Shown here: positions 2,927 through 34,351 of the stretch, in pieces
How the letters are laid out: each line of letters starts with the position of its first letter
How positions within the stretch are numbered: the first letter of the stretch is position 1
IMG/VR virus record: IMGVR_UViG_3300045988_172761
Coordinates: 1-34,351 of that record
Reading direction: 5' to 3' (one strand)
From: a virus
Length of the DNA stretch: 34,351 nt
Made by a program: the position numbers and the translations under genes
The notes under the pieces: model-generated
Told to the model about the DNA's origin: nothing
The model's input: only the letters and a program-made list of their open reading frames with translations
The model's database searches: none

Positions 2927-4591
2927 ATGGCGGATCCCGCGCACGAGCAGACCGACGACATGATCGAGGAGATCCGGCAGCGGATCTCCCGCGAGTACCT
3001 GCGGGCCTATGAGGGGGCGGAGGAGAAGCTCGCCGACTACCTGCGCCGGTTCGAGGCCAAGGACCGGATCCACGCGGAGGCCGTGAGGCGGGGCGAGGAG
3101 ACCGAGGCTGACTACCGCGAGTGGCGGCGCGGCCAGATCCTGGTGGGTGAGAGGTGGCAGGAGCTGGTGGACACCCTGGCGGAGGACTACCGCAACGTCG
3201 ACCGCGTGGCGGCGTCGATCGTGAACGGCCACGCGCCGGACGCCTACGCCGTGAACCACGACTACGCCACCTTCCAGGTCGAGAAGGGCTCCAACCTGGA
3301 CACGTCCTACACGCTCTACGACCGCGCCACGGTGGAGCGCCTGATCCGCGACCAGCCGGACCTGCTGCCCGCCGTGAGGGTGGACGGAAAGCGCGACCTC
3401 GCGTGGAACCGGAGGCACATCGCCTCCGCCATCACCCAGGGCGTGCTGCAGGGCGAGAGCATGGACAAGGTGGCGCGCCGCGTCCGCTCCGTGGCCGACA
3501 TGGACTACCGCGCCGCCATGCGCACGGCCCGCACCGCCATGACCTCCGCCCAGAACGCCGGGCGCGTGGACGCGTACAGGCGCGCCGAGGGCATGGGGAT
3601 CCACGTGCGCAAGCAGTGGCTCGCCACGCTCGACGGCCGCACCCGCCACAGCCACAGGCAGCTCGACGGCGAGGTGGCGGGCATGGGGGAGAGCTTCAGC
3701 AACGGGCTGAGCTACCCCGGCGACCCCTCCGGGACGGGCAGCGAGGTCTACAACTGTCGGTGTACCCTGGTGCCCGTGGTGGACGGCGCGGACCCCTCCG
3801 AGGGCGTGAGGCACTCGAACCTGGGCGGCGTGAGCTACGAGGAGTGGCGCGGGGAGCGCGAGCGCCGCGCGCCCACGGGGGAGTCCGCCGTCGTACATAG
3901 ATACGAGGCGGCCGCCTCCGAGGGGTACGTCAAGTCGGGCTCATACCCCTCGTGGCTTCCGGGAACGGACTCGGCCGCTATGGAGGCGGTCGAGAGGTAC
4001 ACCAGCGACCAGTACCGCAGCGTCAACGGCTACCTGCGGCGGACGGGGGACTTCGCCCCGGATGGCAGGTACGGGAAGGCCCTCTCCCGCACCCCGGACG
4101 TGGAGTTCGCCCGAGCCAACCCGCTGGTTCGGCAGGAGGGCGAGAGTCTACCTGCCTTCCTGCGCAGGAGGAGGGAGGACGGGCTCTCCGACATCAGGGC
4201 GGCGGTCATGGCCGAGGACGCGGTGACCGCCACGGTGCGGGAGATGGACGCGCTGATAGATGGTTACGACCTCCCCAACGACGTGGTGCTGTTCCGGCGC
4301 GTGGACGCGAACGCCCTGCCGAACGACCCGCGATCCATAGTGGGCGGGACCTACGAGGACCGGGCGTACATGTCGACGTCCATCTTCGAGAGGAACAACT
4401 TCGTGGGGTCCGACGAGTACTTGATGAGGTTGAGGGTGCCCGCTGGAAGGGGTAGGGGCATGTACGTCAACGACATGTCCTCGTCCAAGGGCGAGCACGA
4501 ATTCGTGCTGGCGCGCGGGTCCAGGTTCCGCGTGGTATCCGTAACCGAGGAGGGAGGAAAGTTCGTGATAGACATGGAGCTTGAGGTATGA
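2927..4591 (+). CDS. minor head protein (SPP1 gp7 / Mu F-like) fused to a C-terminal ADP-ribosyltransferase toxin domain
   Basis: 554 aa. Residues ~100-290 carry MuF motifs (KQWLATLDGRTRHSHRQLDG ... VYNCRCTL). Residues ~345-554 carry ART hallmarks: YTSDQYRSVNGYLRR (Y-x-x-N-x-x-LR helix), the Arg motif VLFRRVD, the STS motif YMSTSIF, and the ExE motif GEHEF. Confidence 0.8.
   Translation: MADPAHEQTDDMIEEIRQRISREYLRAYEGAEEKLADYLRRFEAKDRIHAEAVRRGEETEADYREWRRGQILVGERWQELVDTLAEDYRNVDRVAASIVNGHAPDAYAVNHDYATFQVEKGSNLDTSYTLYDRATVERLIRDQPDLLPAVRVDGKRDLAWNRRHIASAITQGVLQGESMDKVARRVRSVADMDYRAAMRTARTAMTSAQNAGRVDAYRRAEGMGIHVRKQWLATLDGRTRHSHRQLDGEVAGMGESFSNGLSYPGDPSGTGSEVYNCRCTLVPVVDGADPSEGVRHSNLGGVSYEEWRGERERRAPTGESAVVHRYEAAASEGYVKSGSYPSWLPGTDSAAMEAVERYTSDQYRSVNGYLRRTGDFAPDGRYGKALSRTPDVEFARANPLVRQEGESLPAFLRRRREDGLSDIRAAVMAEDAVTATVREMDALIDGYDLPNDVVLFRRVDANALPNDPRSIVGGTYEDRAYMSTSIFERNNFVGSDEYLMRLRVPAGRGRGMYVNDMSSSKGEHEFVLARGSRFRVVSVTEEGGKFVIDMELEV
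3959..4591 (+). other. ADP-ribosyltransferase (C3/VIP2/exoenzyme-like) domain of the MuF fusion protein
   Basis: R / STS / ExE catalytic triad motifs in the canonical order and spacing. Confidence 0.7.
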
Positions 4592-4775
4592 AGGACAGGT
4601 TCGTGAGCCGTGCCGGGGAGTTCTCCCTGACCATGCCGGACAGACCCCGTAGGGCAGGGGAGGGGCCGGCGGAGGCCCTCGGGCGACACCCCGGGGCGCT
4701 GGTGCCGGGGCGCACCCCAGCTGGTCAGGGAGGGGCGCTCCGTGCCCCCGGAGAGGTATCGGGAGGGAGGCCGGC

Positions 4776-5114
4776 GTGGCGATCGACGGCGTGACGGTCA
4801 ACGAGGACAACACCGAGGAGGCCTCGCAGGGCATCCAACGGGCGATAGACCGCGCCCTGGAGGAGATCGGCCTGGCGGCGGAGGGCTACGCCAAGCGCGC
4901 GTGCCCGGTGGACACGGGCCGTCTGCGCAACTCCATCACCCACGTGGTCGAGGGCTCCGAGGACGCCGTGTACGTGGGCACGGACGTGGAGTACGCGCCC
5001 TACGTCGAGCTGGGCACCCGCCGCACGGCGGCGCAGCCGTTCCTGCGGCCGGCGGCGACCGGGCACGGCCCGACCTACCGCTCGATACTCGAGAGGAACC
5101 TGGAGGAGGGGTAG
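4776..5114 (+). CDS. HK97 gp10-like phage protein (head-tail region component)
   Basis: 112 aa with GTG start and RBS gggagggagg. The motif VDTGRLRNSI is typical of the HK97-gp10-like family. Confidence 0.55.
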   Translation: MAIDGVTVNEDNTEEASQGIQRAIDRALEEIGLAAEGYAKRACPVDTGRLRNSITHVVEGSEDAVYVGTDVEYAPYVELGTRRTAAQPFLRPAATGHGPTYRSILERNLEEG

Positions 5115-5126
5115 CGCGCGGGTACC

Positions 5127-5474
5127 GTGTTGCATCATAGCAACACCGGATGCAACACGGCGCAGCGCCGCGTGCGGCCGTCAATGCAACGCGGGATGCA
5201 ACGGCCCTCCCGCCCCAGGTCAGAGCGTGTTGCACCGCTGCAACTGTCAAGGCGTTGCATAGTTGCACGCGCGTCCGGTCGCGGCTGTTGTATTGTATTG
5301 CACCCCCTTTGGGGGTGCAATACAATACAACACGCCCGACGCCTGCAACGCAACGGGACAACTTGCCCTCCCGCCACCCCCGTGTTACAATTTACCGGAA
5401 GGGCCGCGAGGCACTGCGGCGAGCCGGGCCCGAGGGAGAGGGCCCTAATCCGAGGGAATGGAGCGAGCGAGACC
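5127..5474 (+). promoter_or_regulatory. non-coding region with >10 TGCAAC/GTTGCA repeats, a 47-bp hairpin (5286..5332) and an extended -10 TGTTACAAT (5383..5391); putative activator-dependent late promoter for the scaffold and capsid genes
   Basis: There is no credible ORF in this region. The repeats are visible directly. The TGnTACAAT element has no good -35. A small GGGCCC hairpin follows before the scaffold RBS. Confidence 0.5.
5286..5332. repeat. perfect inverted repeat (22-bp arms, 3-nt loop): tgttgtattgtattgcaccccc ttt gggggtgcaatacaatacaaca
   Basis: The palindrome was checked base by base. Confidence 0.85.
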
Positions 5475-6047
5475 ATGGCACTGACGAGGAAGCTCCTGCG
5501 ATCCATGGGGATCGAGGACGACAAGATCGACCAGATCATCGAGGCGCACGGCGAGACCGTGAGCGCGCTGAAGGACGAGCGCGACCAGTACCGCGACGCG
5601 GCGGAGGCCCTGCCGAGCGTGCAGAAGGAGCTGGACGACCTGAAGGCCAAGCCGGGCGACGGCTACAGGGAGAGGTACGAGAAGGAGCACGCCGACTTCG
5701 AGGCGTTCCGCGCGGAGACCGAGAAGGCCGCCGGGGAGCGCGAGAAGCGCGGGCTGTACCGCAAGCTCCTGCAGGGGGCCGGGGTGGACCCGCACCGCCT
5801 GGACGCCGTCATGCGCGTGGCCGACCTGTCGGGCGTCGTGGTCGAGGACGGGAAGATCAAGGACGCGGACGAGCTGGCCGAGGCCGCGAAGAAGGAGTGG
5901 TCCGACTTCATCGTGCGGACCGACACCAAGCCCGCGCAGGTGGACGACCCGCCCGCCGGGGGAAGCGACCCGGCCAAGAAGGAGCCGCACTCCATCGCGG
6001 AGGCCATGCGGCAGAGGATGGCGGCGGGAGCCGCCCACGAAGACTAA
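5475..6047 (+). CDS. head scaffolding protein
   Basis: ~190 aa, acidic, rich in Glu/Lys/Ala/Arg and predicted helical, directly upstream of the major capsid gene. The ATG at 5475 follows RBS gagggaatggag. The longer track ORF starting at 5127 covers the repeat region and is rejected. Confidence 0.6.
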   Translation: MALTRKLLRSMGIEDDKIDQIIEAHGETVSALKDERDQYRDAAEALPSVQKELDDLKAKPGDGYRERYEKEHADFEAFRAETEKAAGEREKRGLYRKLLQGAGVDPHRLDAVMRVADLSGVVVEDGKIKDADELAEAAKKEWSDFIVRTDTKPAQVDDPPAGGSDPAKKEPHSIAEAMRQRMAAGAAHED

Positions 6048-6059
6048 GGAGAACCCACT

Positions 6060-7055
6060 ATGGCGATCACCCTCGCCGAGGCCAAGGTCGGCATGGCCGA
6101 CAAGGTCGACCAGCAGGTGGTGGACACGTTCCGCCGCTCCTCACTGCTCCTCGACCGCCTCACGTTCGACAACTGCATCTCGCCCGGCACCGGCGGCTCG
6201 ACCCTGGGCTATCAGTACACGATGCTGAAGACCCCGGCCACCGCCGCCGTCCGCGCGATCAACACCGAGTACACCGCCAACGAGGCCAAGCGCGAGACCA
6301 AGCGCACGCAGGCCATCATCATGGGCGGCAGCTTCGAGATCGACCGCGTGATCCAGAACACGTCCGGCGTGATCGACGAGCTTAGCTTCCAGGCGGAGCA
6401 GAAGATCCAGGCCACGGCCAACTACTTCCACTACCTGGCGATCAACGGCACCGCCGACAAGTCCGGCGCGGGCCTGGTGACCAACACCTTCGACGGCCTG
6501 AAGAAGCTGCTCGCGGGCAGCTCCACCGAGTACGCCGCCACCGCCGACCTGACCACCTCGGCCAACGTGGACGCGAACTACAACGCGTTCCTGGACGAGC
6601 TGGACGACTTCATCTCCGGCCTCGACGGCTTGCCGGACATGCTGCTCATGAACCGCAAGATGCTCTCCAAGCTGCGCGGCATCGCGCGCCGCGCGGGCTA
6701 CTACGAGAGCACCAAGGACGACTTCGGGCGCACGGTGGAGACCTACAACGGCATCGAGCTGATGGACGCGGGCCAGTATTACGACGGCTCCAAGACCGTC
6801 GACACGGTCGCCGACACGGCGGCGGGCTCCGGCACCGCCGGCACCACCGAGATCTACGCGGTCAAGTTCGGCCTCGACGCCTTCTGCGGCATCTCCCCGC
6901 AGGGCAGCGGCGTGATCACGTCCTACATGCCCGACCTCACCGAGCCGGGCGCGGTCAAGAAGGGCGAGGTCGAGCTGGTCGCGGGCGTGGCGCTTAAGAA
7001 CTCGCTCAAGGCCGGCGTGATGCGCGGCATCCAGGTGGCACCCGCCACCAAGTAG
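6060..7055 (+). CDS. major capsid protein
   Basis: 331 aa, following the scaffold gene, with a strong RBS (aaggagaac). Size and position fit an SPP1/P22-like coat protein. Confidence 0.75.
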   Translation: MAITLAEAKVGMADKVDQQVVDTFRRSSLLLDRLTFDNCISPGTGGSTLGYQYTMLKTPATAAVRAINTEYTANEAKRETKRTQAIIMGGSFEIDRVIQNTSGVIDELSFQAEQKIQATANYFHYLAINGTADKSGAGLVTNTFDGLKKLLAGSSTEYAATADLTTSANVDANYNAFLDELDDFISGLDGLPDMLLMNRKMLSKLRGIARRAGYYESTKDDFGRTVETYNGIELMDAGQYYDGSKTVDTVADTAAGSGTAGTTEIYAVKFGLDAFCGISPQGSGVITSYMPDLTEPGAVKKGEVELVAGVALKNSLKAGVMRGIQVAPATK

Positions 7056-14577: not shown

Positions 14578-15015
14578 ATGCTTAACTACGTAATAACGAC
14601 TGCTGTGACCACGATTATGGGCACCGTGATCGGCTGGCTGTTGAACGCGGTCAAAACCAACACCGCGCACTTGCATGACGCGTCGCGCCGTGAACACGAA
14701 GAGCGTGTACAGAATCGCGCTATACTCGGCGAGCTGCTGTTTTACCGGCTCGAGGATCTGCACCGGCGCTTTGTCATCGAAGGGTACCCATGCTCGGCTG
14801 CGGAGAAACAGCAGGTGGACCGGGTGTACCGGCACTACCATGACGAGCTGGGGCTCAACGGCCCCGGCACCCACATGTACGAGGAGATCATGGAGGCGCA
14901 CCAGAGCTACTCGGTCGGCGAGGGGTGGTTGACAACGGCCTCCGCCGGTGCTACAATGCAGGGCAAGGAGATTGACCTAGGAGGTCGAGACAGTGGAGTA
15001 CATGATCCCCGATAA
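14578..15015 (+). CDS. membrane-anchored protein of unknown function upstream of the holin (one N-terminal TM helix)
   Basis: 145 aa. An AT-rich intergenic region precedes it. RBS aagagg. The hydrophobic N-terminus is VITTAVTTIMGTVIGWLL. Confidence 0.4.
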   Translation: MLNYVITTAVTTIMGTVIGWLLNAVKTNTAHLHDASRREHEERVQNRAILGELLFYRLEDLHRRFVIEGYPCSAAEKQQVDRVYRHYHDELGLNGPGTHMYEEIMEAHQSYSVGEGWLTTASAGATMQGKEIDLGGRDSGVHDPR

Positions 15016-20143: not shown

Positions 20144-20574
20144 TCCCCCGTGGACCCGAAGCCGCCCTCGCCGCGACCGTCCGGGCTGCCGGGCAGCACG
20201 TCGACCTCCGACCACCGCACGTCCTCGATCACGTGGAAGAGCACCTGCGCCAGTCGCATCCCCGGGCGAACCTCCATCGGCTCGTCTCCCATGTTGTGCA
20301 CGCACACGAACAGCTCCCCCCGGTAGCCGTTGTCGATTATCCCCTCGTTGACCAGCAGGCGGTGCTTGCGGAGGCTGGAGCTGCGGCCCGTGATCCTGGC
20401 GTACAGGCGCGGGGGCATGGAGATGTAGATGTCGGTGTGCACGTCCACGGTCTCTCCGGGCCCGACCGTCACCGGGCGGCTCGCGTACAGATCCCACCCC
20501 GCGTCGCCGGAGTGGCGCTTGAAGGGGCGGCGCGCCCCCTCCCCCAGCCTGTAGTCCACGTAGCGCGCGGCCAT
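20140..20574 (-). CDS. dut: dUTPase-like (trimeric dUTP diphosphatase fold)
   Basis: 144 aa with all five dUTPase motifs: GDAGWDLYA, GRSSSLRKH, IDNGYRGEL, GMRLAQVLF and RGEGGFGSTG. Confidence 0.8.
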   Translation of the reverse strand: MAARYVDYRLGEGARRPFKRHSGDAGWDLYASRPVTVGPGETVDVHTDIYISMPPRLYARITGRSSSLRKHRLLVNEGIIDNGYRGELFVCVHNMGDEPMEVRPGMRLAQVLFHVIEDVRWSEVDVLPGSPDGRGEGGFGSTGE

Positions 20575-21626
20575 CACTCCGCCACCTCCGCGACGCTGTC
20601 GGGGCCGGTGCCGAAGTAGCGCACGCGGCCCGTCAGGCCGGCGGCCTCCAGGAACTCCGACATGGGCGCGCTGTCGCGCACCTGCGAGACGCTGCGCGTG
20701 CCCGCGAGCGCGGGGTCCACGTAGTCGCAGAAGGTGAGAGCGACCTCGGTCGGGGCGTTCAGCAGCTCCGACTGCCGGAACAGCTCCGGGTCCCAGTGGG
20801 CCACGCGGCGGACCTTGTGGGTCACCGTCGTGCGCTCCACGACCTGGTGCCCGACGCGCTCCGAGATCTCGCCCCACTCGGTCTCGCCCTCCATGGGGCC
20901 GGAGTTGCCCGCCACGCGGATGGGGAACGTGCGACAGACCATCAGCACGTCGGTCAGTCGCGACGGGGCCACCCCGACCTCCGAGATCATGCCCGCCGCG
21001 TTGGTGTCGACGCTGGTGCAGTAGGGCCAATGGGAGTGCAGCAGGCTGAGGCCCGAGCCCTGCGTGCCCTCGATCAGCACGTCCTCCCCGGCGTCCTGCC
21101 ACCCCGCGATCAGGCCCGGGGTGTTGTTCACGCAGCACACGCTGAGGCCGTAGTCGTCGCACACGTCCCCGAACAGGCGGAACTTCTCCGGGTCGCGCTC
21201 CAGGCGGGCGATCCTGGCGGGGCCCACCCCCTCACCGGTGGAGCCGATACGGCGGTGCATCTCGCCGTTGATCCCGCCCTCCTGCTCGTGGAACCTCTCA
21301 TCGAGGATCCCGGCGCAGGAGTCGATGTACAGGCGGCTCAGGAAGTCCGGGTAGTACTGCAGGATGTGCACCAGCTCGTTCATCAGCAGGCGCATGTTTA
21401 GCAGCGCCCCGCGCCCGATCACGATCTTGGCCTCCGGGTTGATCCACCCGCACGGGATCGACTGCATGACGTGCTTAGCGCCGTGCCAGTAGATCGTGTG
21501 GCCGGCGTTGGGGGAGCCCACGCGCACGTGGACGCTGTAGCGGTCGGCCACGTGGCGGGCGATCGCCCCCTTGCCCTCGCTGCCGTACTGGCCGCCCACC
21601 AGGGCGCACATCTTTCCTCTAGACAT
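20574..21626 (-). CDS. purZ: adenylosuccinate synthetase homologue, short form (PurZ-like, 2-aminoadenine pathway)
   Basis: 350 aa. The PurA-like P-loop reads MCALVGGQYGSEGKGA, with a GSTGEGVGPA motif. It is ~80 aa shorter than cellular PurA, as PurZ is, and sits next to the DUF550, HD and PolA genes. Confidence 0.65.
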   Translation of the reverse strand: MSRGKMCALVGGQYGSEGKGAIARHVADRYSVHVRVGSPNAGHTIYWHGAKHVMQSIPCGWINPEAKIVIGRGALLNMRLLMNELVHILQYYPDFLSRLYIDSCAGILDERFHEQEGGINGEMHRRIGSTGEGVGPARIARLERDPEKFRLFGDVCDDYGLSVCCVNNTPGLIAGWQDAGEDVLIEGTQGSGLSLLHSHWPYCTSVDTNAAGMISEVGVAPSRLTDVLMVCRTFPIRVAGNSGPMEGETEWGEISERVGHQVVERTTVTHKVRRVAHWDPELFRQSELLNAPTEVALTFCDYVDPALAGTRSVSQVRDSAPMSEFLEAAGLTGRVRYFGTGPDSVAEVAE

Positions 21627-22186: not shown

Positions 22187-24031
22187 TCACGATATCCCCT
22201 CCCGGGCCTCTGGGGCGCAGTCCGGTACCGGCGCCTCGCCGAGCCATGTCGGGCCGCCGTCCCAGTCATGGAACGTGCCCCAGGACCCTCCGTACTCGAT
22301 GTCCACCCCGACCGCCGGGACGAACTCGAAGTCCTCCATTATCAGCTTGATGGTTGGCAGCGCCACGTCGAGCGCCCCCTCCGGCACCTCGAATATCACC
22401 GAGTCGTGCACCTGCATCAGCAGGTGGCCCCCTATGTCGTGGATGGCCGGGTACAGGCGCGAGATCGCCACGCGGACGATCTCGGCCACGCCGCCCTGGA
22501 TCAGGTTGGACATAGCCTTGTGAGGGTCGGCCTCCGGCACGTTGAAGTGCCGGATGCGGCCCGTCCACATCTCGATGTAGCCGTACTGCTTGGCGAACTC
22601 CTCGCACTGGGACATCAGGCGGCGGAAGCCCGGGTACAGCGCGTGGTAACGCTCCAGGTAGTCGCGCGCCTGCTCCACTGGCTCCTTGAGGTTGTCCGCC
22701 AGCTTGCGGGCCCCGATGCCGTAGATGACCGAGAAGTTGAGGCGCTTCGCCGCGTTGCGCGGGATCCCCAGCAGCTCCGCCGTGGCGGAGTGCAGGTCCG
22801 CGCCGTCCTCGATCAGCTTGCGCATGGTCGGGTCCTGTGTGTAGTGCGTGACCAGGCGCATCTCGGCCTGCTTGTAGTCCGCCTGAATCATCACCATGCC
22901 GGGCCGGGCCGTGAACACGTCCTTGACCTTGAAGACCTCGGTGGCCTTGGCCACGGCCTGCAGGTTCGGGTGCGAGCACGACAGGCGGCCCGTGTAGGTG
23001 CCGATCAGGTTGAGGTTGCAGTGCAGCACGTCATCCTCGTCGGCCTGCTCCAGGTACGGCGTGTAGTATCGGCTGTTCACCGACAGCCACCCGCGCGCCT
23101 CCTGCACCAGCCGCGCGCGCTCCGCGCCCTCCCCGCCCGCGTCGATCAGGTCCTGCAGCACCGCCGCCGCGCTGGAGGTCGTCCCCAGGAACTCGCACAC
23201 GCGCTTGGGGCTGTTGGGGTTCAGGTCGAACCCAGCGGCCTCGTGCAGGGCCTTCACGGCCCTGGTGGCGTTGCCCTCGGCCTCGGCGCGGTAGTGCTCC
23301 AGCATGGGGCGGTCCACGTGCATGCCGCGCTGCTCCATCTGCACCACTACATAGTCGTAGTAGCACGCCTGGCGGAAGATCTCCTCCAGGCCCTGGGCAC
23401 GCAGCGCCTCGCGCAGGTAGCCCATGAGCTGCCGGGTGAGGCGCACGTCGTCGCAGGCGTAGGGTTCCACGTCGGCGGGTGGCAGGACATACATCATGGA
23501 CTTCACGTTGTGCTCGGCCCTGGGGGAGCGGCTGCACTCCAGGCCGAGGCGTCGGCACTCCTCGAACACCCTGTCCTCCAGGATCGACTCCTGCAGGGAC
23601 CCGTCCCCGATCCTATATCGGTCGCACACCTCCTTCAGCTTGAACGACGGCTCGTTCTCGTTGATCAGGTGCAGGGCGAGCATGGCGTCCTCGAACTTGG
23701 GCGGGATCGCGATCCCCTCCGCCGCCAGCATGTGCAGGTCGAAGCCGTAATTGAAGCCTAGGTACGTGCGGTGCTCGTCCGAGAGATAGCGCCCCAGGAA
23801 GCCGTCAGGATCCAGCAGCCCATCGGGCAGGTTGGCACCCTGCTCGTGCCGGAACGGGAAGTAGTACGCCTCGGTGCTGGTGTCGACGGAGATCCCTATC
23901 ACGCGGTCCCGGGCCCGGCCCGGACGCCCGAAGGCGTCCAGGCCGGTGGTCTCGGTGTCTACGCAGGGGTCCATGCACGCCAGGAGGTCAGGGGCTACCT
24001 CGCGCAGCTTGTCCAGCGTGTCGACCAGCAT
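22187..24031 (-). CDS. family A DNA polymerase (PolA-like, DpoZ candidate) with 3'-5' exonuclease domain
   Basis: 614 aa. The exonuclease motif is VDTETTGLD, motif A is DYKQAEMRLV and motif C is QVHDSVIFE. Confidence 0.9.
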   Translation of the reverse strand: MLVDTLDKLREVAPDLLACMDPCVDTETTGLDAFGRPGRARDRVIGISVDTSTEAYYFPFRHEQGANLPDGLLDPDGFLGRYLSDEHRTYLGFNYGFDLHMLAAEGIAIPPKFEDAMLALHLINENEPSFKLKEVCDRYRIGDGSLQESILEDRVFEECRRLGLECSRSPRAEHNVKSMMYVLPPADVEPYACDDVRLTRQLMGYLREALRAQGLEEIFRQACYYDYVVVQMEQRGMHVDRPMLEHYRAEAEGNATRAVKALHEAAGFDLNPNSPKRVCEFLGTTSSAAAVLQDLIDAGGEGAERARLVQEARGWLSVNSRYYTPYLEQADEDDVLHCNLNLIGTYTGRLSCSHPNLQAVAKATEVFKVKDVFTARPGMVMIQADYKQAEMRLVTHYTQDPTMRKLIEDGADLHSATAELLGIPRNAAKRLNFSVIYGIGARKLADNLKEPVEQARDYLERYHALYPGFRRLMSQCEEFAKQYGYIEMWTGRIRHFNVPEADPHKAMSNLIQGGVAEIVRVAISRLYPAIHDIGGHLLMQVHDSVIFEVPEGALDVALPTIKLIMEDFEFVPAVGVDIEYGGSWGTFHDWDGGPTWLGEAPVPDCAPEAREGIS

Positions 24032-25626: not shown

Positions 25627-26199
25627 CTACTTCTCGTCCACGTACGTCGCGGCCTCGTCGGCCACGTGCAGCAGCCAGGCCAGCGGGTTAGCCGCGTAGA
25701 CCGGGCTGGGGTTGCTGTAGCTGGTCGCGTCGAACTGCCCCATGTGGCAGTTGATCGCCGCCGCCTCCTCCGGGGACAGCTCCACGAAGTGCTGCACCAG
25801 GTAGACGCTCTTGGACCCGTGCCCACCGAAGGGGAACTTCTCCTCGAACTTGTAGCAGGGCACGCGGTGCCACTGCCCGCGCTCGTCCTTGACGTTGCGG
25901 AAGTCCCGCACGTAGCAGTCCGCCTTGCACACGTCGTGCAGCAGGGCGCACAGAGCCATCGACTCCTTGGCCAGGCCGAACCCGAGGCCGGCGTCGAGCT
26001 GCAGCAGGCGGTCGCACACCGCCAGCGAGTGCTCCACCAGCCCGCCCTCGTGCGCCCCGTGCCAGCGGGTACTGGCGGGGGCCTGGAAGAAGTCCGAGCC
26101 CTCCAGCCAGGCGATCAGGGCCTCCACCCCCTCCCTGCCGGTCGCGCGCAGCCTGTCCTCGAACTCGGAGGCGGCGTCGCTCAGAACCTCGTTTGCCAT
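25627..26199 (-). CDS. HD-domain phosphohydrolase (DatZ-like dNTP triphosphohydrolase candidate)
   Basis: 190 aa. HD motifs are HEGGLVEHSL and LLHDVCK. RBS agaggagaag. It is the first gene of the operon behind promoter 26230..26259. Confidence 0.75.
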   Translation of the reverse strand: MANEVLSDAASEFEDRLRATGREGVEALIAWLEGSDFFQAPASTRWHGAHEGGLVEHSLAVCDRLLQLDAGLGFGLAKESMALCALLHDVCKADCYVRDFRNVKDERGQWHRVPCYKFEEKFPFGGHGSKSVYLVQHFVELSPEEAAAINCHMGQFDATSYSNPSPVYAANPLAWLLHVADEAATYVDEK

Positions 26200-26264: not shown

Positions 26265-27338
26265 CTATTTCCGGTGCTCTTTCCGAGTGTACTGGCGCTG
26301 CCGCACGTCGTCCGCGTCGTACCCGCGCAGCTCCACCTGGCACAGGTCGCGGAACTGGCAGCCCCGACAGTTCCAGGGGAACATGGAGCGGCGGCTGCCG
26401 CCCTTCGAGGAGCGGCGGACGCCCCACGAGGCGGGAACGACCACCTGATCCCAGATCGCGCGCACGGTCTCGGGGGAGCGCAGCTCGTAGGTCTCGCGGA
26501 ACCACTCCACGTCCGCGAGCTTCCCCTCCATCTCCGCGTAGTCGGCGGGGTCCAGCCCCTGCTGCTCCACGAACGCGCGGTAGTGGGCCCACGTGGTTCG
26601 CACGCGGGCGCGGGACACCCCGCTCTTGGTGAGCGCCGGGTCGGCGGCGGGCACGTTCAGGTGCTGCCAGGTGAGCGTGCCCACCACGTCCGCCCCCATG
26701 CGCTCGCAGGCCCTCATGTACACCGCGTTCTGCAGCGAGAACTGCTCCTCCTCAGGATCCTCCAGCTGCGAGCGAAACTTGTAGTCCACGCACCAGGCGT
26801 GGCCGGTCTCGCGGTCGCGCAGGATCGCGTCGACGTAGCCGTGCAGGCCCTTGGATCCCGCGCAGGGGACCAGGAAGTGCAGCTCCAGGGCGGGGCGCTC
26901 CTGACCGTCGCCGCCGACCACGGTCAGCACCTCCCAGCGCGCGGGGTCGAACTCGGCGAGCGCCTGCCCGAACACCGCGAGCGCGTCCTGGAGGCGCTGC
27001 TGGAACTCCGGCAACTCCTCGGGCAGCAGGTCCACCCCCGACAGGTACCGGTCGTGCTCCTCGCGTATCCGGGCCTCCCCCACGCCGATCAGCTCCCGCA
27101 GGTCGCCGTCGGCGACGGCCCCGTGCTCCACCATCCACGCGTGGCGCATGGCCGCCTCGAACCCGGCGTGGCAGAGCTTGCCGATCGTCAGGTACGGGCG
27201 CTCCACGCGGGGCGCTAGCCCCTCCAGGTAGCCGTACTCCCACCTCTTGGCGCAGGCCATCCAGCTCTGCAGCTGCGTGGCCGACACCATCCCCTCGGGC
27301 GACGCGCCCTCGGGGTACAGGCACTTGGTCTCTCTCAT
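26265..27338 (-). CDS. PD-(D/E)XK exonuclease, Cas4/RecB-like, with C-terminal Cys cluster
   Basis: 357 aa from MRETKCLYPE (RBS aggaggaccgag; ATGA overlap with the PrimPol stop). A nuclease core (DYKF) and a C-terminal C..CxxC..C Cys cluster (MFPWNCRGCQFRDLC) are present. The N-terminal extension in the track is a GC artefact. Confidence 0.65.
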   Translation of the reverse strand: MRETKCLYPEGASPEGMVSATQLQSWMACAKRWEYGYLEGLAPRVERPYLTIGKLCHAGFEAAMRHAWMVEHGAVADGDLRELIGVGEARIREEHDRYLSGVDLLPEELPEFQQRLQDALAVFGQALAEFDPARWEVLTVVGGDGQERPALELHFLVPCAGSKGLHGYVDAILRDRETGHAWCVDYKFRSQLEDPEEEQFSLQNAVYMRACERMGADVVGTLTWQHLNVPAADPALTKSGVSRARVRTTWAHYRAFVEQQGLDPADYAEMEGKLADVEWFRETYELRSPETVRAIWDQVVVPASWGVRRSSKGGSRRSMFPWNCRGCQFRDLCQVELRGYDADDVRQRQYTRKEHRK

Positions 27339-29140
27339 CCCTCGGTCCTCCTGAACTTTCCGTCCGGCATCCTCTCCACCATGCCCGCCGCCTCCAGCTG
27401 CCGGATCTGCCGGGAGACGGTGGACCTGTTCTTGCCCGTGGCCTGGACAAGCTCCGCCTGGGTCATCGGCGACTCGCGGATGATGTCCAGCAGCGAAGCC
27501 TGGGCGGGCTTGCGCTGCCCCTGTCCCGGGGCCGCCTGATAGTCGCGCACGTCCACGCGGTAGCGCATGGGGTGCACCGTGCTGATGTCGAAGGTGAGCG
27601 ACACCGGCGGCTGGTTGCCCATGACCTTCGAGTGCCTGCGCACCACCACCTCGTTGTCGGCTAGGCGCGGGTTGCGTCGGATCTGCCAGCCCGCCTCCAG
27701 GAAGGCGTTCAGGAACTGCGATCCCCACGAGTCCTCGCGGGCCGTGCTGTCGGGGTCGATGTTCTTCCGCGAGTGGTGAGCGATCAAAAACGAGCACCCG
27801 TAGCGGTCGCGCCAGGTCTTGAGCACCATCATCTGATTGGCGAGATCGGCCATGTAGCCGTCCACCGAGGAGGTGGTGGAGTACAGGGGGTCGATCAGCA
27901 CGACCTTGGGGTGGATCGCCTCTATCTGCTTCTCCAGCTCCTCCAGCACACGCTCGTTATCGAACCGCAGCATGCGGGAGGGGTGCACGTAGATCGGCAA
28001 GTCCGGCATGACCGGTATCCTCCACTCGTCGCCGTCGATGTCCTCCAGCGAGCTGGTCTTCTGCTCCACGATCAGCGCCAGGCGGTCGGTCAGGCCCGCA
28101 TGGCTGTCCTCCTGCTGGATGATCATCGTGGGGCCGGGGTCGTTGACGCGGTAGCGCCCAAGGAACGGCACGCCCGCCGACACCGACACCGCCAGGTCGA
28201 GAAGCAGCCAGGTCTTGTAGCTCTCGGGCGGGCTGACCAGGAACGTGATCGACGCGTCCGGCAGCCAGTCGTCCACGAGCCAGTGCACGCCGCCGCCGCC
28301 GTAGCCCTTCACGTAGTCCACCATCCGCATCACGTCGAAGGTCGACCCCTCCGCCCGCTCCTCCGCCGTGCGGTCGTCCTCGAACTGCACGGAGGTGAAC
28401 TGCTCGCCGCCCAGCGCGTGGGACCGCTCGATGGAGCGCACCGTGGTGCGCACCTCACGGGCGGGCATCGGCGGGTCGTTGCGCTCGTTCCACTCCTGCA
28501 GCAGCGCCTCCACGATGTCGCTCTCCAGGCCCTTCTTGAAGAAGTACCCGGCCAGTCGCGCGCACGTGTCGTTGCGCCCTCCCTCGGACACCCCGCGCAG
28601 GGCCTCGGCGATCCAGCCGTCGCCCTCGCGGGAGGAGGGCTGCGCCCGCATGTCCAGCAGCTCGCGCGGGAACGGCCCCGGCGCGCCCTGCTCCACCCAC
28701 TCGTAGCGGTTGCCGCTCGCGTGGCGGGTCGGGGGCAGCACGATGAAGCCGCCGTCGGCGCGCAGGTCCGCGCCCTCGAAGATCCGCACCCGGTTGGAGA
28801 CCCGGCCCACGCCCTGGGGGTAGGAGTAGAACAGGTGATAGCCGCCCGACCCGGTGCGGCTCACCATCCGGGTGGGCCACCTGCGCAGCAACTCCCCCAC
28901 GGGGGTCGGGCAGTCGGCCTCGACGTCCAGCACCACCATGCCGGATACCTTGCCGGTGACCACTCCCACGCCCGCCCCGGTCAGCGCGGCGAACCACTGC
29001 TCGACCTGCCGGCGCGGGGCCCGCTGGTGGGTGTACTGCAGCCAGTTGCCCATGTAGGGGCGCTTCTCGTCCGGGCGCACGGGGAGCACGGACCACCCCC
29101 GGTCCACGTACTCCAGCGCCAGCCTACTCGTCTCGTCCAC
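27335..29140 (-). CDS. bifunctional primase-polymerase (PrimPol N-domain) + P-loop NTPase + C-terminal winged HTH
   Basis: 601 aa. The N-terminus (LPVRPDEKRPY, GGYHLFY) is PrimPol-like. The middle carries a RecA-like P-loop (SPPESYKT) with DxxQ/HH motifs. The C-terminus has a MarR-like wHTH (TQAELVQATGKNRSTVSRQIRQLE). Confidence 0.7.
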   Translation of the reverse strand: MDETSRLALEYVDRGWSVLPVRPDEKRPYMGNWLQYTHQRAPRRQVEQWFAALTGAGVGVVTGKVSGMVVLDVEADCPTPVGELLRRWPTRMVSRTGSGGYHLFYSYPQGVGRVSNRVRIFEGADLRADGGFIVLPPTRHASGNRYEWVEQGAPGPFPRELLDMRAQPSSREGDGWIAEALRGVSEGGRNDTCARLAGYFFKKGLESDIVEALLQEWNERNDPPMPAREVRTTVRSIERSHALGGEQFTSVQFEDDRTAEERAEGSTFDVMRMVDYVKGYGGGGVHWLVDDWLPDASITFLVSPPESYKTWLLLDLAVSVSAGVPFLGRYRVNDPGPTMIIQQEDSHAGLTDRLALIVEQKTSSLEDIDGDEWRIPVMPDLPIYVHPSRMLRFDNERVLEELEKQIEAIHPKVVLIDPLYSTTSSVDGYMADLANQMMVLKTWRDRYGCSFLIAHHSRKNIDPDSTAREDSWGSQFLNAFLEAGWQIRRNPRLADNEVVVRRHSKVMGNQPPVSLTFDISTVHPMRYRVDVRDYQAAPGQGQRKPAQASLLDIIRESPMTQAELVQATGKNRSTVSRQIRQLEAAGMVERMPDGKFRRTEG

Positions 29141-29360
29141 TGCCTACCTCCGCAGGGTCCACGAAGATCTCGTAGGTGTGCACCTTGTACACCCCGGCGT
29201 ACTTCTCGATCGCGTCCTGGCTCAGGCCCCGGCTGCAGTTCTCGTGGCGCGAGATCGCGGCCACCGAGATGCCGGTGAGCGTGGACACCTCATCCTGCGT
29301 CAGGCGCGAGCGGTCGCGCAGCTCGCGCAGCCTGTTGCGGGGGGCCCCGTTGTCCTTCAT
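29124..29360 (-). CDS. XRE-family HTH transcriptional regulator (Cro/CI-type fold)
   Basis: 78 aa from MKDNG with RBS agaggagagag. The HTH reads LTQDEVSTLTGISVAAISRHEN. Confidence 0.65.
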   Translation of the reverse strand: MKDNGAPRNRLRELRDRSRLTQDEVSTLTGISVAAISRHENCSRGLSQDAIEKYAGVYKVHTYEIFVDPAEVGSGRDE

Positions 29361-29381
29361 ACTCTCTCCTCTCTGATCGGT

Positions 29382-29406
29382 TGCACCGTTGCACCGTTGC
29401 AACGAC
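29382..29406. promoter_or_regulatory. three direct TGCAAC repeats (TGCAAC-GG-TGCAAC-GG-TGCAAC on the minus strand) at the transcription start / 5' UTR of the XRE gene; candidate operator
   Basis: On the plus strand: gttgcaccgttgcaccgttgcaacg. The same hexamer populates the two late intergenic regions. Confidence 0.4.
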
Positions 29407-29436
29407 ATTGTATAAACGCGTCAAGTCGACTGTCAA
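29407..29436 (-). promoter_or_regulatory. sigma70-type promoter TTGACA-N18-TACAAT for the XRE gene and downstream operon
   Basis: -35 at 29431..29436, -10 at 29407..29412. Confidence 0.45.
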
Positions 29437-29441
29437 GTGGT

Positions 29442-32603: not shown

Positions 32604-33224
32604 TCAGCAGCCAGGCAGGCGGTACCCCGCCGCGCGCAGCACCTGCTCGCCCCTCTCGGTGAGGCGCATGGCCTTCGCCCTCCGCGAGCGCCCGGTCGCG
32701 CCGTCCTCGCGCGGCTCGGCCCAGACCCGGATCAGGCCCTTCTCGCGCAGGGTGCTGACCATCGCGCCGAAGGGCATGCCGCCGACGCCCATCTCGTCGA
32801 GCAGCACGTCGGTCCACACGGTGCCGTCGCCCCCGGCCCAGCAGGGGCAGCCGCCCGCGGCCCGCAGGAACTCGCACTGCCGCGCGGTCAGCGTCACGCC
32901 CGACGGCGCGTGCTCGAAGGCCACGTCGCGGCTGCGGCGCCCGCGCGGGCGCCCCTCCCGGGCCCCCGAGGCCCCCCCGTCGGCCCCGGGCGCGGGGTCC
33001 GGCACCTGGGCCGGGGCGGCGTCCCCGCGGGCCCCGGAGGCCGCCCCGGAGGCCTCGTCGGCCACCCTCGCCAGGCGCGCGCCCAGCTCCTCGTAGTGCG
33101 CCCCGCGCGCCTCGTCGAACTCGGCGCGGGACACGCGCCTGCCGTCCCGGAAGCAGTAGCCGCCCCGCGTCCTGCGCCACCTGCTGCCGCCCTGCTCGAA
33201 CGTTACCTCCGCCTGCTGTGCCAT
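32604..33224 (-). CDS. hypothetical protein, first substantial early gene
   Basis: 206 aa with RBS ggaggacgac. Contains GGCPCWAGG. No recognisable domain. Confidence 0.45.
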   Translation of the reverse strand: MAQQAEVTFEQGGSRWRRTRGGYCFRDGRRVSRAEFDEARGAHYEELGARLARVADEASGAASGARGDAAPAQVPDPAPGADGGASGAREGRPRGRRSRDVAFEHAPSGVTLTARQCEFLRAAGGCPCWAGGDGTVWTDVLLDEMGVGGMPFGAMVSTLREKGLIRVWAEPREDGATGRSRRAKAMRLTERGEQVLRAAGYRLPGC

Positions 33225-33370: not shown

Positions 33371-33399
33371 ATCGTACCATGCCCGCAGGACATTGTCAA
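33371..33399 (-). promoter_or_regulatory. sigma70-type promoter TTGACA-N17-TACGAT driving the leftward early operon, embedded in TGTCAAG-N6-CTTGACA and TGTCAA-N8-TTGACA inverted repeats (33345..33412)
   Basis: -35 at 33394..33399, -10 at 33371..33376. A divergent TTGACA is also present on the plus strand. Confidence 0.45.
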
Positions 33400-33439
33400 G
33401 TCTCGACTTGACACTTCTACACAAGGTCTACACACGCCG

Positions 33440-33827
33440 ACCAGCAGCGGACGGGGCGCGTTGCATTGCACCGTTGCGCGGTGTTGCACCGGTGCACGCG
33501 CGGCCCCGGGAGGGGTCGTCGCGCGCCCTCGCGTTGCTACAATGCAACAGAGAATGCAACGCGACATGCTCTCTTGACACCTGTCAACGCCCGCGAGCGC
33601 CCCGCACGCCCTCCGACCTGGGGCGCCTCCACGCACTGTCAAGTGTTGCATGATTGCACACCGCGTTGGTTGCGTGTGTTGCATTGCATTGCAATCCCCT
33701 TGGGGATGCAATGCAATGCAACACGCAACGCCGGCCGTGCAACGGCGCACGCGCGGGGTGGACGGGGCGGCGCGGGCGTGTTACAATGCGGGGAGAGCGC
33801 AGAGAGGAGGTGGGCGCGCTGCCCTAC
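33440..33827 (+). promoter_or_regulatory. non-coding region with ~15 TGCAAC/GTTGCA repeats, a TTGACA-CC-TGTCAA palindrome, a 49-bp hairpin (33666..33714) and an extended -10 TGTTACAAT (33779..33787); putative activator-dependent late promoter upstream of terS
   Basis: The architecture parallels 5127..5474. It also contains gttgctacaatgcaac and gtgcacgcgcg elements shared with that region. Confidence 0.5.
33666..33714. repeat. near-perfect inverted repeat (gtgttgcattgcattgcaatcccc tt ggggatgcaatgcaatgcaacac; one bulged base)
   Basis: Verified by reverse-complementing the arms. Confidence 0.8.
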
Positions 33828-34351
33828 ATGGAGTTTCCCAAGAGCAACCGGGGCGCGATCGAGCGCAAGCGGTTCTGGCTGTCGGACGACGGCCTGGCGC
33901 TGATCGCGGGCTTCCGCCGCGAGGGCATGACCATGGAGGAGATCTACAACGGCCAGGTCGGGGTGTCCTCGACCACGTGGCGCTCGTGGCTCGCCTCCAG
34001 CGACGGGCTGCGCGAGGCGATCGCCCAGACCGACGAGCAGGTCAACTGCCTGGTGGAGCGCGCGCTGCTGCGCCGCGCCCTGGGCTACGAGGTCGTGGAG
34101 GAGGACGAGGAGCTGGTGGAGGGCGAGATGCGCGTGGTGCGCCGCCGCCACCGGCACGTGCCGCCCGACACCAAGGCCCAGCTCGCGTGGCTCTACTCGC
34201 GCCGCGCCGACCGTTGGCGCGCGAGCCAGGACCCGCGCGACGCCACGACCGAGCAGCTGCGCGCGGTGGACGCCGTGGTGGTGTCGATCGCCCACGCCTC
34301 GGTCCTGCCGGATGGCGCGGACCCTCAACCTCAAGTAGAGGTCGAGGGTTC
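33828..34351 (+). CDS. terS: terminase small subunit (HTH-containing), truncated by the window end and continuing at 1..41
   Basis: This ORF is missing from the six-frame track because it has no in-window stop. Translation reads MEFPKSNRGAIERKRFWLSDDGLALIAGFRREGMTMEEIYNGQVGVSS...; the size, the position before terL and the N-terminal HTH-like segment fit TerS. RBS agagaggagg. Confidence 0.65.
   Translation, partial: MEFPKSNRGAIERKRFWLSDDGLALIAGFRREGMTMEEIYNGQVGVSSTTWRSWLASSDGLREAIAQTDEQVNCLVERALLRRALGYEVVEEDEELVEGEMRVVRRRHRHVPPDTKAQLAWLYSRRADRWRASQDPRDATTEQLRAVDAVVVSIAHASVLPDGADPQPQVEVEG
34327..34351. repeat. 25-bp sequence identical to 1..25
   Basis: Direct comparison. Confidence 0.9.

Follow-up and report, generated by a model that had tools for sequence, protein, structure and literature searches.

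A palindrome and TGCAAC-repeat module ahead of the scaffold gene of a siphovirus-like genome: a candidate replication-initiation or priming site

The 34,351-nucleotide stretch analysed here (IMG/VR record IMGVR_UViG_3300045988_172761; hereafter, the window) holds a ~34-kb, 68% GC siphovirus-like genome, in which a non-coding island separates an HK97 gp10-like gene from the scaffold and major capsid genes. The island is composite. One layer consists of a promoter and the leader of the scaffold mRNA; the other, added on to it, is a conserved DNA-level protein-assembly module (5125-5355) built of TGCAAC-type repeats and a 47-bp palindrome. Our leading, though tentative, reading of this module is that of a replication-initiation or priming site for a PrimPol-helicase-winged-helix protein resembling ORF904 of pRN1.

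The non-coding island between the gp10-like and scaffold genes

The island spans the 360 bp (5115-5474) between the stop codon (5112-5114) of the gp10-like gene (4776-5114, + strand) and the ATG at 5475 of the scaffold gene (5475-6047, +; Pfam Phage_scaffold), which is followed by an SU10-type major capsid gene (6060-7055, +) and then by the tail genes. In line with the initial annotation, this segment is non-coding: the GC content of the three codon positions is flat over 5127-5474 (0.62/0.64/0.66), as against 0.72/0.40/0.97 in the scaffold gene, and an independent gene caller left the same gap on the identical ENA contig. The long open reading frames (ORFs) across the island had been regarded as artefacts, which proved right for the minus-strand frame (5135-5650) and for the 5' part of the plus-strand frame (5127-6047) but not for 5475-6047, the real scaffold gene.

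The palindrome (5286..5332) is perfect over 47 bp, as previously proposed, with the sequence TGTTGTATTGTATTGCACCCCC-TTT-GGGGGTGCAATACAATACAACA, that is, two 22-nt arms around a 3-nt loop. Each arm comprises three 5-bp units of the form (G/A)TTG(C/T), and an imperfect extension reaches from 5278 to 5340. The folding energy is -49.5 kcal/mol (z-score -11.5). As regards an intrinsic terminator, the GC-rich hairpin is present, but no T/U run follows the palindrome on either strand. Rfam gave no match in the whole window and only sub-threshold miRNA hairpins in 5100-5500.

Relatives were collected with a capsid query (80 IMG/VR loci), with a scaffold query (80 metagenome loci) and through homologues of an early protein, and a motif-first scan for palindrome ends, whose search pattern permitted 36-56 bp, returned 37 stretches. 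Most palindrome matches measure 47±1 bp (listed range 43-52), and the few that are asymmetric by one 5-bp unit keep the 47-bp length. Across the 17 outer pairs of 21 distinct palindromes (357 pair cells), Watson-Crick pairing reaches 99.2%; compensatory cells number 24, one-sided (wobble) changes are absent, and none of 500 shuffles scored as high. The choice between C and T in the units varies between phages and between the two copies of the window (T,T,C and C,C,C), and is mirrored in the other arm. The centre of the palindrome also varies in sequence while keeping its self-complementarity, the loop being found flipped both ways, as TTT and as AAA.

The covariation analysis reveals stem symmetry as an evolutionary constraint, and its strict Watson-Crick character indicates that the pairing of DNA strands matters. 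The absence of wobble pairs, the absence of a T run even in low-GC relatives and the 10-12 bp spacing of the half-sites described below all speak for an element acting at the level of DNA and not of RNA. In addition, the palindrome is more conserved than the neighbouring proteins, and its arms read the same in phages ranging from 41 to 68% GC, which implies that the protein reading it should be encoded by the phage rather than by the host.

The exact hexamer TGCAAC occurs 25 times in the window, compared with 10.0±3.3 times in shuffled sequences, none of 100 of which reached 25. Three clusters, at 5129-5349 (9 copies), 33460-33743 (8) and 29380-29403 (4), account for 21 of the 25. More than ten copies had been attributed to the island; the exact ones number only nine, and the figure rises to 16 when the T[GA]CAA[CT] variants TACAAC, TGCAAT and TACAAT are counted. 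The distal array (block A, 5125..5202, +), invariant in a seven-sequence alignment, contains a 12-nt perfect inverted pair, CCGTGTTGCATC (5125-5136) and GATGCAACACGG (5149-5160), forming a GTTGCA-N-TGCAAC dyad. Its direct repeats (AGCAAC at 5139; TGCAAC at 5151, 5185 and 5197) pair 12 bp apart, 5139 with 5151 and 5185 with 5197. A dyad of the type GTTGYA-N2-4-TRCAAC stands upstream in 19 of 27 scaffold-side modules.

Block A is followed by a conserved GC-rich spacer box, GGCCCTCCCGCCCCAGGTCAGAGCG (5203..5226, +), which was read from the sequences and is related to CCCTC(C/T)GACCTG(C/G)GG boxes in relatives and in a second copy of the module upstream of terS. The proximal array (block B, 5227..5267, +) consists of GTGTTGCACCGCTGCAAC, then TGTCAAGG, which carries a half-site of a second motif, TGTCAAG, and then CGTTGCATAGTTGCA; the pattern TGTCAAG..GTTG.A...TTGCA is invariant in all seven aligned modules. 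Beyond the palindrome, the flanking half-sites TGCAAC-GCAACG (5344..5355, +) hold a position that is fixed to the palindrome and not to the promoter. Half-sites occur in both orientations; the pairs of the window lie 12 bp apart, and one relative (L165) has six half-sites in a row at 10-12 bp spacing. The GC content of the island is 62-64%, with no AT-rich block that could serve as an unwinding element.

Other identities of the repeats were considered and rejected. TGCAAC as the -35 element of an extracytoplasmic-function sigma factor finds, on inspection of the sequence, no matching -10 at the right distance, and a parS-like role finds no ParB-like gene among the window proteins. A minus-strand promoter at CTTGACAG (5245-5252) lacks a -10.

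The extended -10 noted earlier at 5383..5391 is indeed present (TGTTACAAT), with TTGCCC 17 nt upstream of it, making up a host-type, sigma-A/sigma-70 promoter (5363..5391, +) from which transcription would start near 5398. This TTGCCC-17-TGtTACAAT arrangement is the only promoter-like match in 4000-7000 (0.2 expected). Its -35 agrees with the consensus at three of six positions; lower-GC relatives have TTGACA or TTGACC. Most of the 27 listed scaffold-side modules have an extended -10 of the same type, and so do clades without the repeats: the gp10-scaffold spacer holds one (TGgTATTAT, TGtTACAAT or TGcTACAAT) in every clade, including some of 43-62% GC in which this spacer is only ~100 bp long. 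Elsewhere in the window, a near-consensus promoter without a TGCAAC array, TTGACA-17-TGcTACAAT (14922-14957, +), lies inside the late region, ahead of a gene starting at about 14993/15034.

The conserved 5' leader of the scaffold mRNA (5398..5474, +) comprises hairpin 1 (5403-5420), hairpin 2 (5426-5445, GGGCCC-gagggaga-GGGCCC) and then TAATCCGAGGGAATGGAGCGA, which contains the Shine-Dalgarno sequence GGAG (5460-5463). In relatives, hairpin loops of the form GARG.A.. are likewise followed by a CCGAAG(A/G)AA(A/T)GGAG tract ahead of the ATG. Hairpin 2 appears in 20 relatives with more than 12 different stem sequences and an 8-nt purine-rich loop, and the overall pattern of a 4-6-bp hairpin, an 8-nt purine-rich loop (GARGAAMN) and then CCGAAGAAAAGGAG recurs in L002, L034, L040, L044, L127 and L176-L210. 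The stems co-vary across phages of 41-68% GC, and no Rfam family matches them; the leader hairpins were picked by eye and trimmed by hand, so that their 100% pairing is partly a product of construction, and MAFFT with RNAalifold could not align the leader hairpin on account of a variable linker. This layer is an old one, with promoter position and structured leader kept in relatives of 43-68% GC, repeat-less clades included. Promoter (5363-5391) and leader (5398-5474) very probably drive and shape expression of the scaffold-capsid operon, and the leader hairpin could, as a separate candidate, be a translational or stability element.

A second copy at terS and the module in related phages

The second copy of the module (33440..33827, +) lies upstream of a terS-like gene that starts at 33828 (+). 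When the island was aligned with this region and with the homologous regions of five relatives, the two window copies matched block by block, with many invariant columns, as the parallel drawn in the initial annotation had foreseen. The terS-side copy has arrays at 33458-33497 and 33531-33562, a TTGACA/TGTCAA element at 33573-33587, block B at 33633-33660, the palindrome at 33677-33723 (extended, 33668-33732), a half-site at 33738-33743 and TGtTACAAT at 33779-33787. In both copies a dyad with direct repeats comes first, then a TGTCAAG box accompanied by two GTTGCA, then the palindrome, CAACGCC and finally the -10. The proposal of a dedicated regulatory element rather than random sequence is therefore upheld as far as a dedicated cis element is concerned, whereas its regulatory role, for instance as an operator platform, becomes a rival reading.

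The terS-side module is placed between divergent promoters, at the minimum of the cumulative GC skew and at the point where the two gene blocks of the genome diverge. Its distal array contains an element resembling an extended -10, TGcTACAAT (33535-33543, +), which is also present in L163, L167, L171 and L172 and not in L169/L170; this element could start a short transcript running into the palindrome.

According to the motif-first scan, the palindrome recurs at three places among about 25 IMG/VR contigs: between the gp10-like and scaffold genes (23 loci), upstream of terS (10) and between PrimPol and the next replication gene (6). On several contigs two or three copies are found together, and the present genome has two. 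The arrays always lie upstream of the palindrome relative to local transcription, with which the module is co-oriented. Only part of the group has the module, but this part takes in the closest relatives (L083-L085, 85-88% scaffold identity) as well as distant phages down to 41% GC. At the third place (L211-L213 and L215-L217) it lies so close to the next start codon (25-30 nt) that no promoter would fit in between, and in L215 it fills the 157-bp gap that separates PrimPol from the PDDEXK gene. A sigma-A-type promoter follows most of the palindromes on the scaffold and terS sides, with the form TTGACA-17/18-TGnTATAAT in lower-GC relatives. The -35 lies 1 to 193 bp from the palindrome end, and the spacing of the flanking TGCAAC is constant relative to the palindrome but not to the -35.

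Variation around the module was also observed. A GIY-YIG endonuclease gene is inserted between gp10 and the module in two relatives (L172:3545-4105 and L173:1103-1663), another ORF occupies this place in L084/L085, and the distal array is shortened in L084, L085 and L172. A 57%-GC sister clade, with an 82% identical capsid protein, has no scaffold-side module, and its promoter there is an extended -10 only. Upstream of terS, this clade has instead a ~800-bp non-coding region (L098:2500-3290, L108:2700-3500) with repeats GTGTGACAG and TATGCACAG and an AT-rich core, which occupies the same position as the terS-side module of the window and looks origin-like.

The phage family, one of gut and rumen, appears to be uncultured, its members coming from human gut and other metagenomes and ranging over 41-68% GC. 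Among cultured phages, megablast of 12 kb gave only short tape-measure matches and tblastn of the PrimPol gave no relative above 34% identity, the best INPHARED match lying below 34%. A scan of bacterial genome contigs for the module returned a single match, on a contig of a Coriobacteriaceae metagenome-assembled genome. In IMG/VR, a TerS query found no relatives, and a two-sequence alignment of the early winged-helix protein described below found nothing, with poor peptide patterns having been selected.

Candidate readers and the function of the module

The third TGCAAC cluster, GTTGCACC GTTGCACC GTTGCAAC (29380..29403, -), lies just downstream of the -10 of the promoter of the XRE-PrimPol operon (-; TTGACA-18-TACAAT at 29433-29407), in an operator-like position. 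The same cluster is found at this promoter in L163 and L167, and not in L165, L169, L170 or L172. The operon begins with a small XRE repressor gene (29124-29360, -), which precedes the gene for a PrimPol (AEP) protein with PriCT_1, an AAA_25 helicase and a C-terminal winged helix (27335..29140, -).

This replication protein is one of two candidate readers of TGCAAC. Pfam detects Prim-Pol, PriCT_1 and, at residues 544-600, a winged helix-turn-helix (wHTH) of MarR/HTH_5 type, and sequence comparison with PDB chains matches only the prim-pol domain of pRN1 ORF904 (1rni, 1ro0, 3m1m). The recognition helix, RSTVSRQIRQLE in the window, is conserved in most relatives as RST(V/I)SRQIRQLE, with KST in L225 and PST in some others. 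The other candidate is an early 206-aa protein (32604-33224, -). Its model (mean predicted local distance difference test score 81, above 90 in the C-terminal domain) displays beta-hairpins at the N-terminus, followed by a long helix, a disordered linker and, at the C-terminus, a winged helix of MarR type. It matches nothing in Pfam, PHROG or NCBIfam and no known late-activator family. Its segment GAMVSTLREKGL does not vary among 38 homologues and hardly varies in relatives of 28-45% identity. All related loci that extend far enough encode a homologue, among them L127, whose recovery via the scaffold protein did not depend on it.

The two candidates could not be separated by means of the sister clade, which is devoid of the whole PrimPol module and of the 206-aa homologue alike. 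A lead for assigning the reader comes from a single case, L225:1780-1830, where the palindrome after PrimPol is made of GTTCC instead of GTTGC units and the PrimPol helix reads KST and not RST. An apparent second palindrome, of GGAAC type, in L226-L228 was discarded, as it falls inside the coding sequence of the PolA exonuclease. The second motif, TGTCAAG(TC), forms a TGTCAAGTC-type palindrome that overlaps two -35 elements on the minus strand, one in the early promoter (33385-33405) and one in the XRE-PrimPol promoter (29416-29440), and occurs as single half-sites inside both TGCAAC modules (5245-5252, 33570-33587 and 33634-33642). These sites look like a Cro-like operator, and XRE is probably the protein that reads them.

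The remaining genes fall into two blocks. On the plus strand, TerL (38-1345), an SPP1-type portal (1347-2834) and a MuF-like head protein (2927-4591) precede the gp10-like gene. The MuF protein ends in an ADP-ribosyltransferase exotoxin domain (Pfam ADPrib_exo_Tox, E = 6e-17) and may be an injected effector. The terS-like ORF leaves the window at its end (34349-34351 / 1-37), and direct joining of the ends brings it in frame with TerL with no stop codon between them; the junction of this presumably circularly permuted assembly thus probably lacks a few bases or has them in duplicate. The early and replication block runs on the minus strand from about 33330 leftwards and comprises small genes of unknown function, a SNF2 helicase, the XRE and PrimPol genes, a PD-(D/E)XK nuclease (26265-27338), an HD protein (25627-26199), AAA_24 and DUF669 proteins, a family-A polymerase (22187-24031) and a short PurZ-like adenylosuccinate synthetase (20574-21626) located near the latter polymerase and the HD protein. 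The best PDB matches of the PurZ-like protein are 7vf6, archaeal PurA, phiVC8 PurZ (6fm1) and S-2L PurZ (7odx); for the HD protein, sequence comparison with PDB chains gave no match.

The minimal replicon of pRN1 offers the closest guide to the replication reading. It comprises a small repressor gene, orf904 (prim-pol, helicase and C-terminal winged helix) and, just downstream of orf904, a large essential stem-loop whose symmetry is needed; restoring symmetry restored replication (PMC4234260). A similar arrangement was noted in Bordetella phage BIP-1, and the assembly of such proteins on stem-loops was proposed (PMC4234260). By analogy, we propose that a winged-helix protein would occupy the TGCAAC/TACAAC half-sites while the palindrome is extruded as a hairpin or cruciform, aided by the negative supercoiling behind the adjacent strong, outward-pointing promoters. 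The extruded structure would then serve as the loading and priming site for the helicase-primase, and forks would leave co-directionally with transcription.

Several lines of evidence favour this proposal. The PrimPol protein has ORF904 as its only PDB match and is preceded by a helix-turn-helix repressor gene, as orf904 is by orf56, and the third place of the module in relatives, right after PrimPol, reproduces the pRN1 layout with the same palindrome as in the window copies. The strict symmetry of the arms recalls the pRN1 stem, and the arrays are iteron-like, combining a dyad with direct repeats 10-12 bp apart, up to the row of six in L165. In the window, L163 and L167, the first part of the PrimPol operon transcript overlaps with TGCAAC repeats, a position resembling autoregulation. 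The terS-side copy coincides with the skew minimum and with the divergence point of the gene blocks, the module points in the direction of transcription, it is unphased with promoters that are near consensus in relatives, and the constancy of the arms over 41-68% GC calls for a phage-encoded reader.

Other observations weigh against a replication site. Two or three origin-like sites are unusual in a genome of 34-40 kb, and two of them stand exactly upstream of late-operon promoters, as a transcription regulator would predict. No AT-rich unwinding element accompanies the arrays. The pRN1-like position is empty in the window, where the PrimPol gene overlaps the PDDEXK gene, and the helicase domain is AAA_25 (RepA/RecA-like) and not the SF3 type of pRN1, no SF3-type family appearing in the Pfam matches. 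In addition, the GC-skew signal is confounded with gene orientation. Either winged-helix protein may be the TGCAAC reader, as both have conserved recognition helices and the motif variant of L225 is a single case. Finally, the asymmetric palindromes that keep 47 bp suggest that the two ends are recognised a fixed distance apart on linear duplex DNA, rather than that a hairpin alone is at work.

Ranking close behind the replication reading, a transcription-control platform is possible, if somewhat doubtful. Here the 206-aa MarR-like protein, perhaps together with XRE acting via TGTCAAG, would use the arrays and the palindrome to set the on/off state or timing of the late operons (terS, scaffold), while the three sites at 29380-29403 would allow the same protein to repress the XRE-PrimPol promoter, in the manner of a phi29 p4-like early/late switch. 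In line with this notion, both window copies sit directly upstream of, and co-oriented with, sigma-A-type late-operon promoters, the dyad GTTGCA-N4-TGCAAC is a classic dimer operator, and the sites at the XRE-PrimPol promoter fall at +1 to +30, where a repressor would bind. The wHTH gene is also the first sizeable early gene beside the terS-side copy, and conservation within the encoded protein is highest in the predicted recognition segment, in keeping with an invariant DNA motif. Its presence in every related locus reaching far enough does not discriminate, however, given that XRE, SNF2 and PrimPol always co-occur as well.

The initial annotation had assumed that the island boosts scaffold and capsid transcription. 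A promoter for this operon is indeed there, and its -35 (TTGCCC) is weak, as a need for activation would suggest; a role of the repeats and palindrome as activator sites is doubtful. The distance between palindrome and -35 (1-193 bp) obeys neither a fixed value nor a helical phase, and the near-consensus promoters of lower-GC relatives should need no activator. The weaker promoter, with an extended -10 only, belongs to the sister clade that has no module, the third copy is followed by no promoter at all, and the strong promoter at 14922-14957 has no array. Moreover, a dimer that accepts both C and T variants does not require strict Watson-Crick covariation of the arms and centre.

An origin of the module as a palindromic repeat of selfish or mobile nature, or as some other site of DNA transactions (terminase recognition or a recombination hot spot, for example), that has settled in intergenic gaps is improbable. 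Its patchy distribution (the scaffold-side copy missing from the sister clade, the third copy confined to some genomes) and the GIY-YIG gene or other ORF inserted beside it would fit a mobile element, and the terS-side position often holds pac or cos sites. On the other hand, the module keeps a syntenic position and orientation even between genomes with scaffold proteins of only 31-50% identity, neither terminal duplications nor a transposase were found, and packaging would require no site ahead of the scaffold gene or behind PrimPol.

A more speculative variant of the replication reading involves base composition. The genome may contain 2-aminoadenine (Z), as suggested mainly by the PurZ-like match. 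With Z in place of A, A:T-rich DNA would be hard to melt, and the palindromes would act as cruciform-type initiation sites replacing the AT-rich unwinding element: extrusion by supercoiling would expose single strands to the PrimPol-helicase, and several sites co-oriented with transcription would keep forks from ever meeting RNA polymerase head-on. We regard this substitution as a long shot.

Least probable of all is an RNA-level role, in which the transcribed palindrome would be a terminator or insulator without a U tract, or a processing or stabilising hairpin between the terS-gp10 and scaffold-capsid transcripts: the great stability of the hairpin, the location of the scaffold-side and third copies within co-directional transcription units and the new promoter after the palindrome in the scaffold-side and terS-side copies would suit it, but T/U runs are lacking even in relatives of 41-50% GC, the terS-side copy has no co-directional operon upstream, not one of the 357 pair cells is a G-U wobble although RNA helices normally tolerate it, arm sequence and not structure alone is conserved, the flanking half-sites have DNA-type phasing, and Rfam yielded no family.

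Comparison with known systems

The module resembles stem-loop and iteron origins as well as phage operator arrays, yet falls outside each of these specific families. Whichever function applies, a palindrome present two to three times per genome provides a testable handle on the start of replication or on the timing of late genes.

At transcription-assisted origins, such as the primary origin of T7, oriF and oriG of T4 and the lambda ori, transcription runs into or across the origin. The present module similarly places a candidate initiation site beside strong promoters; unlike in those cases, the window promoter points away from the palindrome, and only supercoiling could couple the two.

Late promoters are controlled by phage regulators including phi29 p4 at A3/A2b-A2c, Mu C/Mor, P2 Ogr, TP901-1 Alt and the RinA/Ltr family upstream of terS. 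The island shares with these systems arrays and dyads upstream of late promoters, one of them before terS, as well as extra sites in a repressing position at an earlier promoter and a small phage DNA-binding protein encoded nearby. It differs in that sites and promoters keep no fixed distance, the promoters of relatives are near consensus and the candidate protein belongs to no family model. A 47-bp perfect palindrome with compensatory evolution has no known counterpart there.

Resemblance is also found with origins that combine repeats and inverted repeats. In RSF1010, oriV contains iterons together with ssiA and ssiB, which are used by the RepB' primase, and phage P4 has ori and crr, with an alpha primase-helicase that ends in a winged helix. 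Repeated initiator-type sites, a spacer, a large inverted repeat and a primase-helicase with a winged helix are features in common, as are two clusters several kb apart (about 6 kb on the circular map of the window). In contrast to those origins, the window has no AT-rich unwinding segment, its sites are 6-bp half-sites in both orientations rather than 20-22-bp iterons, and they abut late promoters.

In pRN1, as here, a small helix-turn-helix repressor gene is followed by a PrimPol-helicase gene with a C-terminal winged helix, the prim-pol domain being homologous to that of ORF904. In relatives, a long self-complementary element comes right after the replication gene, and its stem symmetry is under selection. 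The window differs from pRN1 in its helicase (AAA_25 and not SF3) and in the form of the element: the pRN1 stem-loop measures about 100 nt and is conserved in structure only, while the present palindrome is 47 bp long, conserved in sequence and flanked by arrays of half-sites. It also occurs two to three times per genome and, in the window, stands before two late operons rather than at the pRN1-like position. If the replication reading holds true, the idea derived from pRN1 and BIP-1, that PrimPol-helicase-winged-helix proteins assemble on stem-loops, would extend to a large group of phages, with defined binding motifs added to it and with an example of multiple origins co-oriented with transcription.

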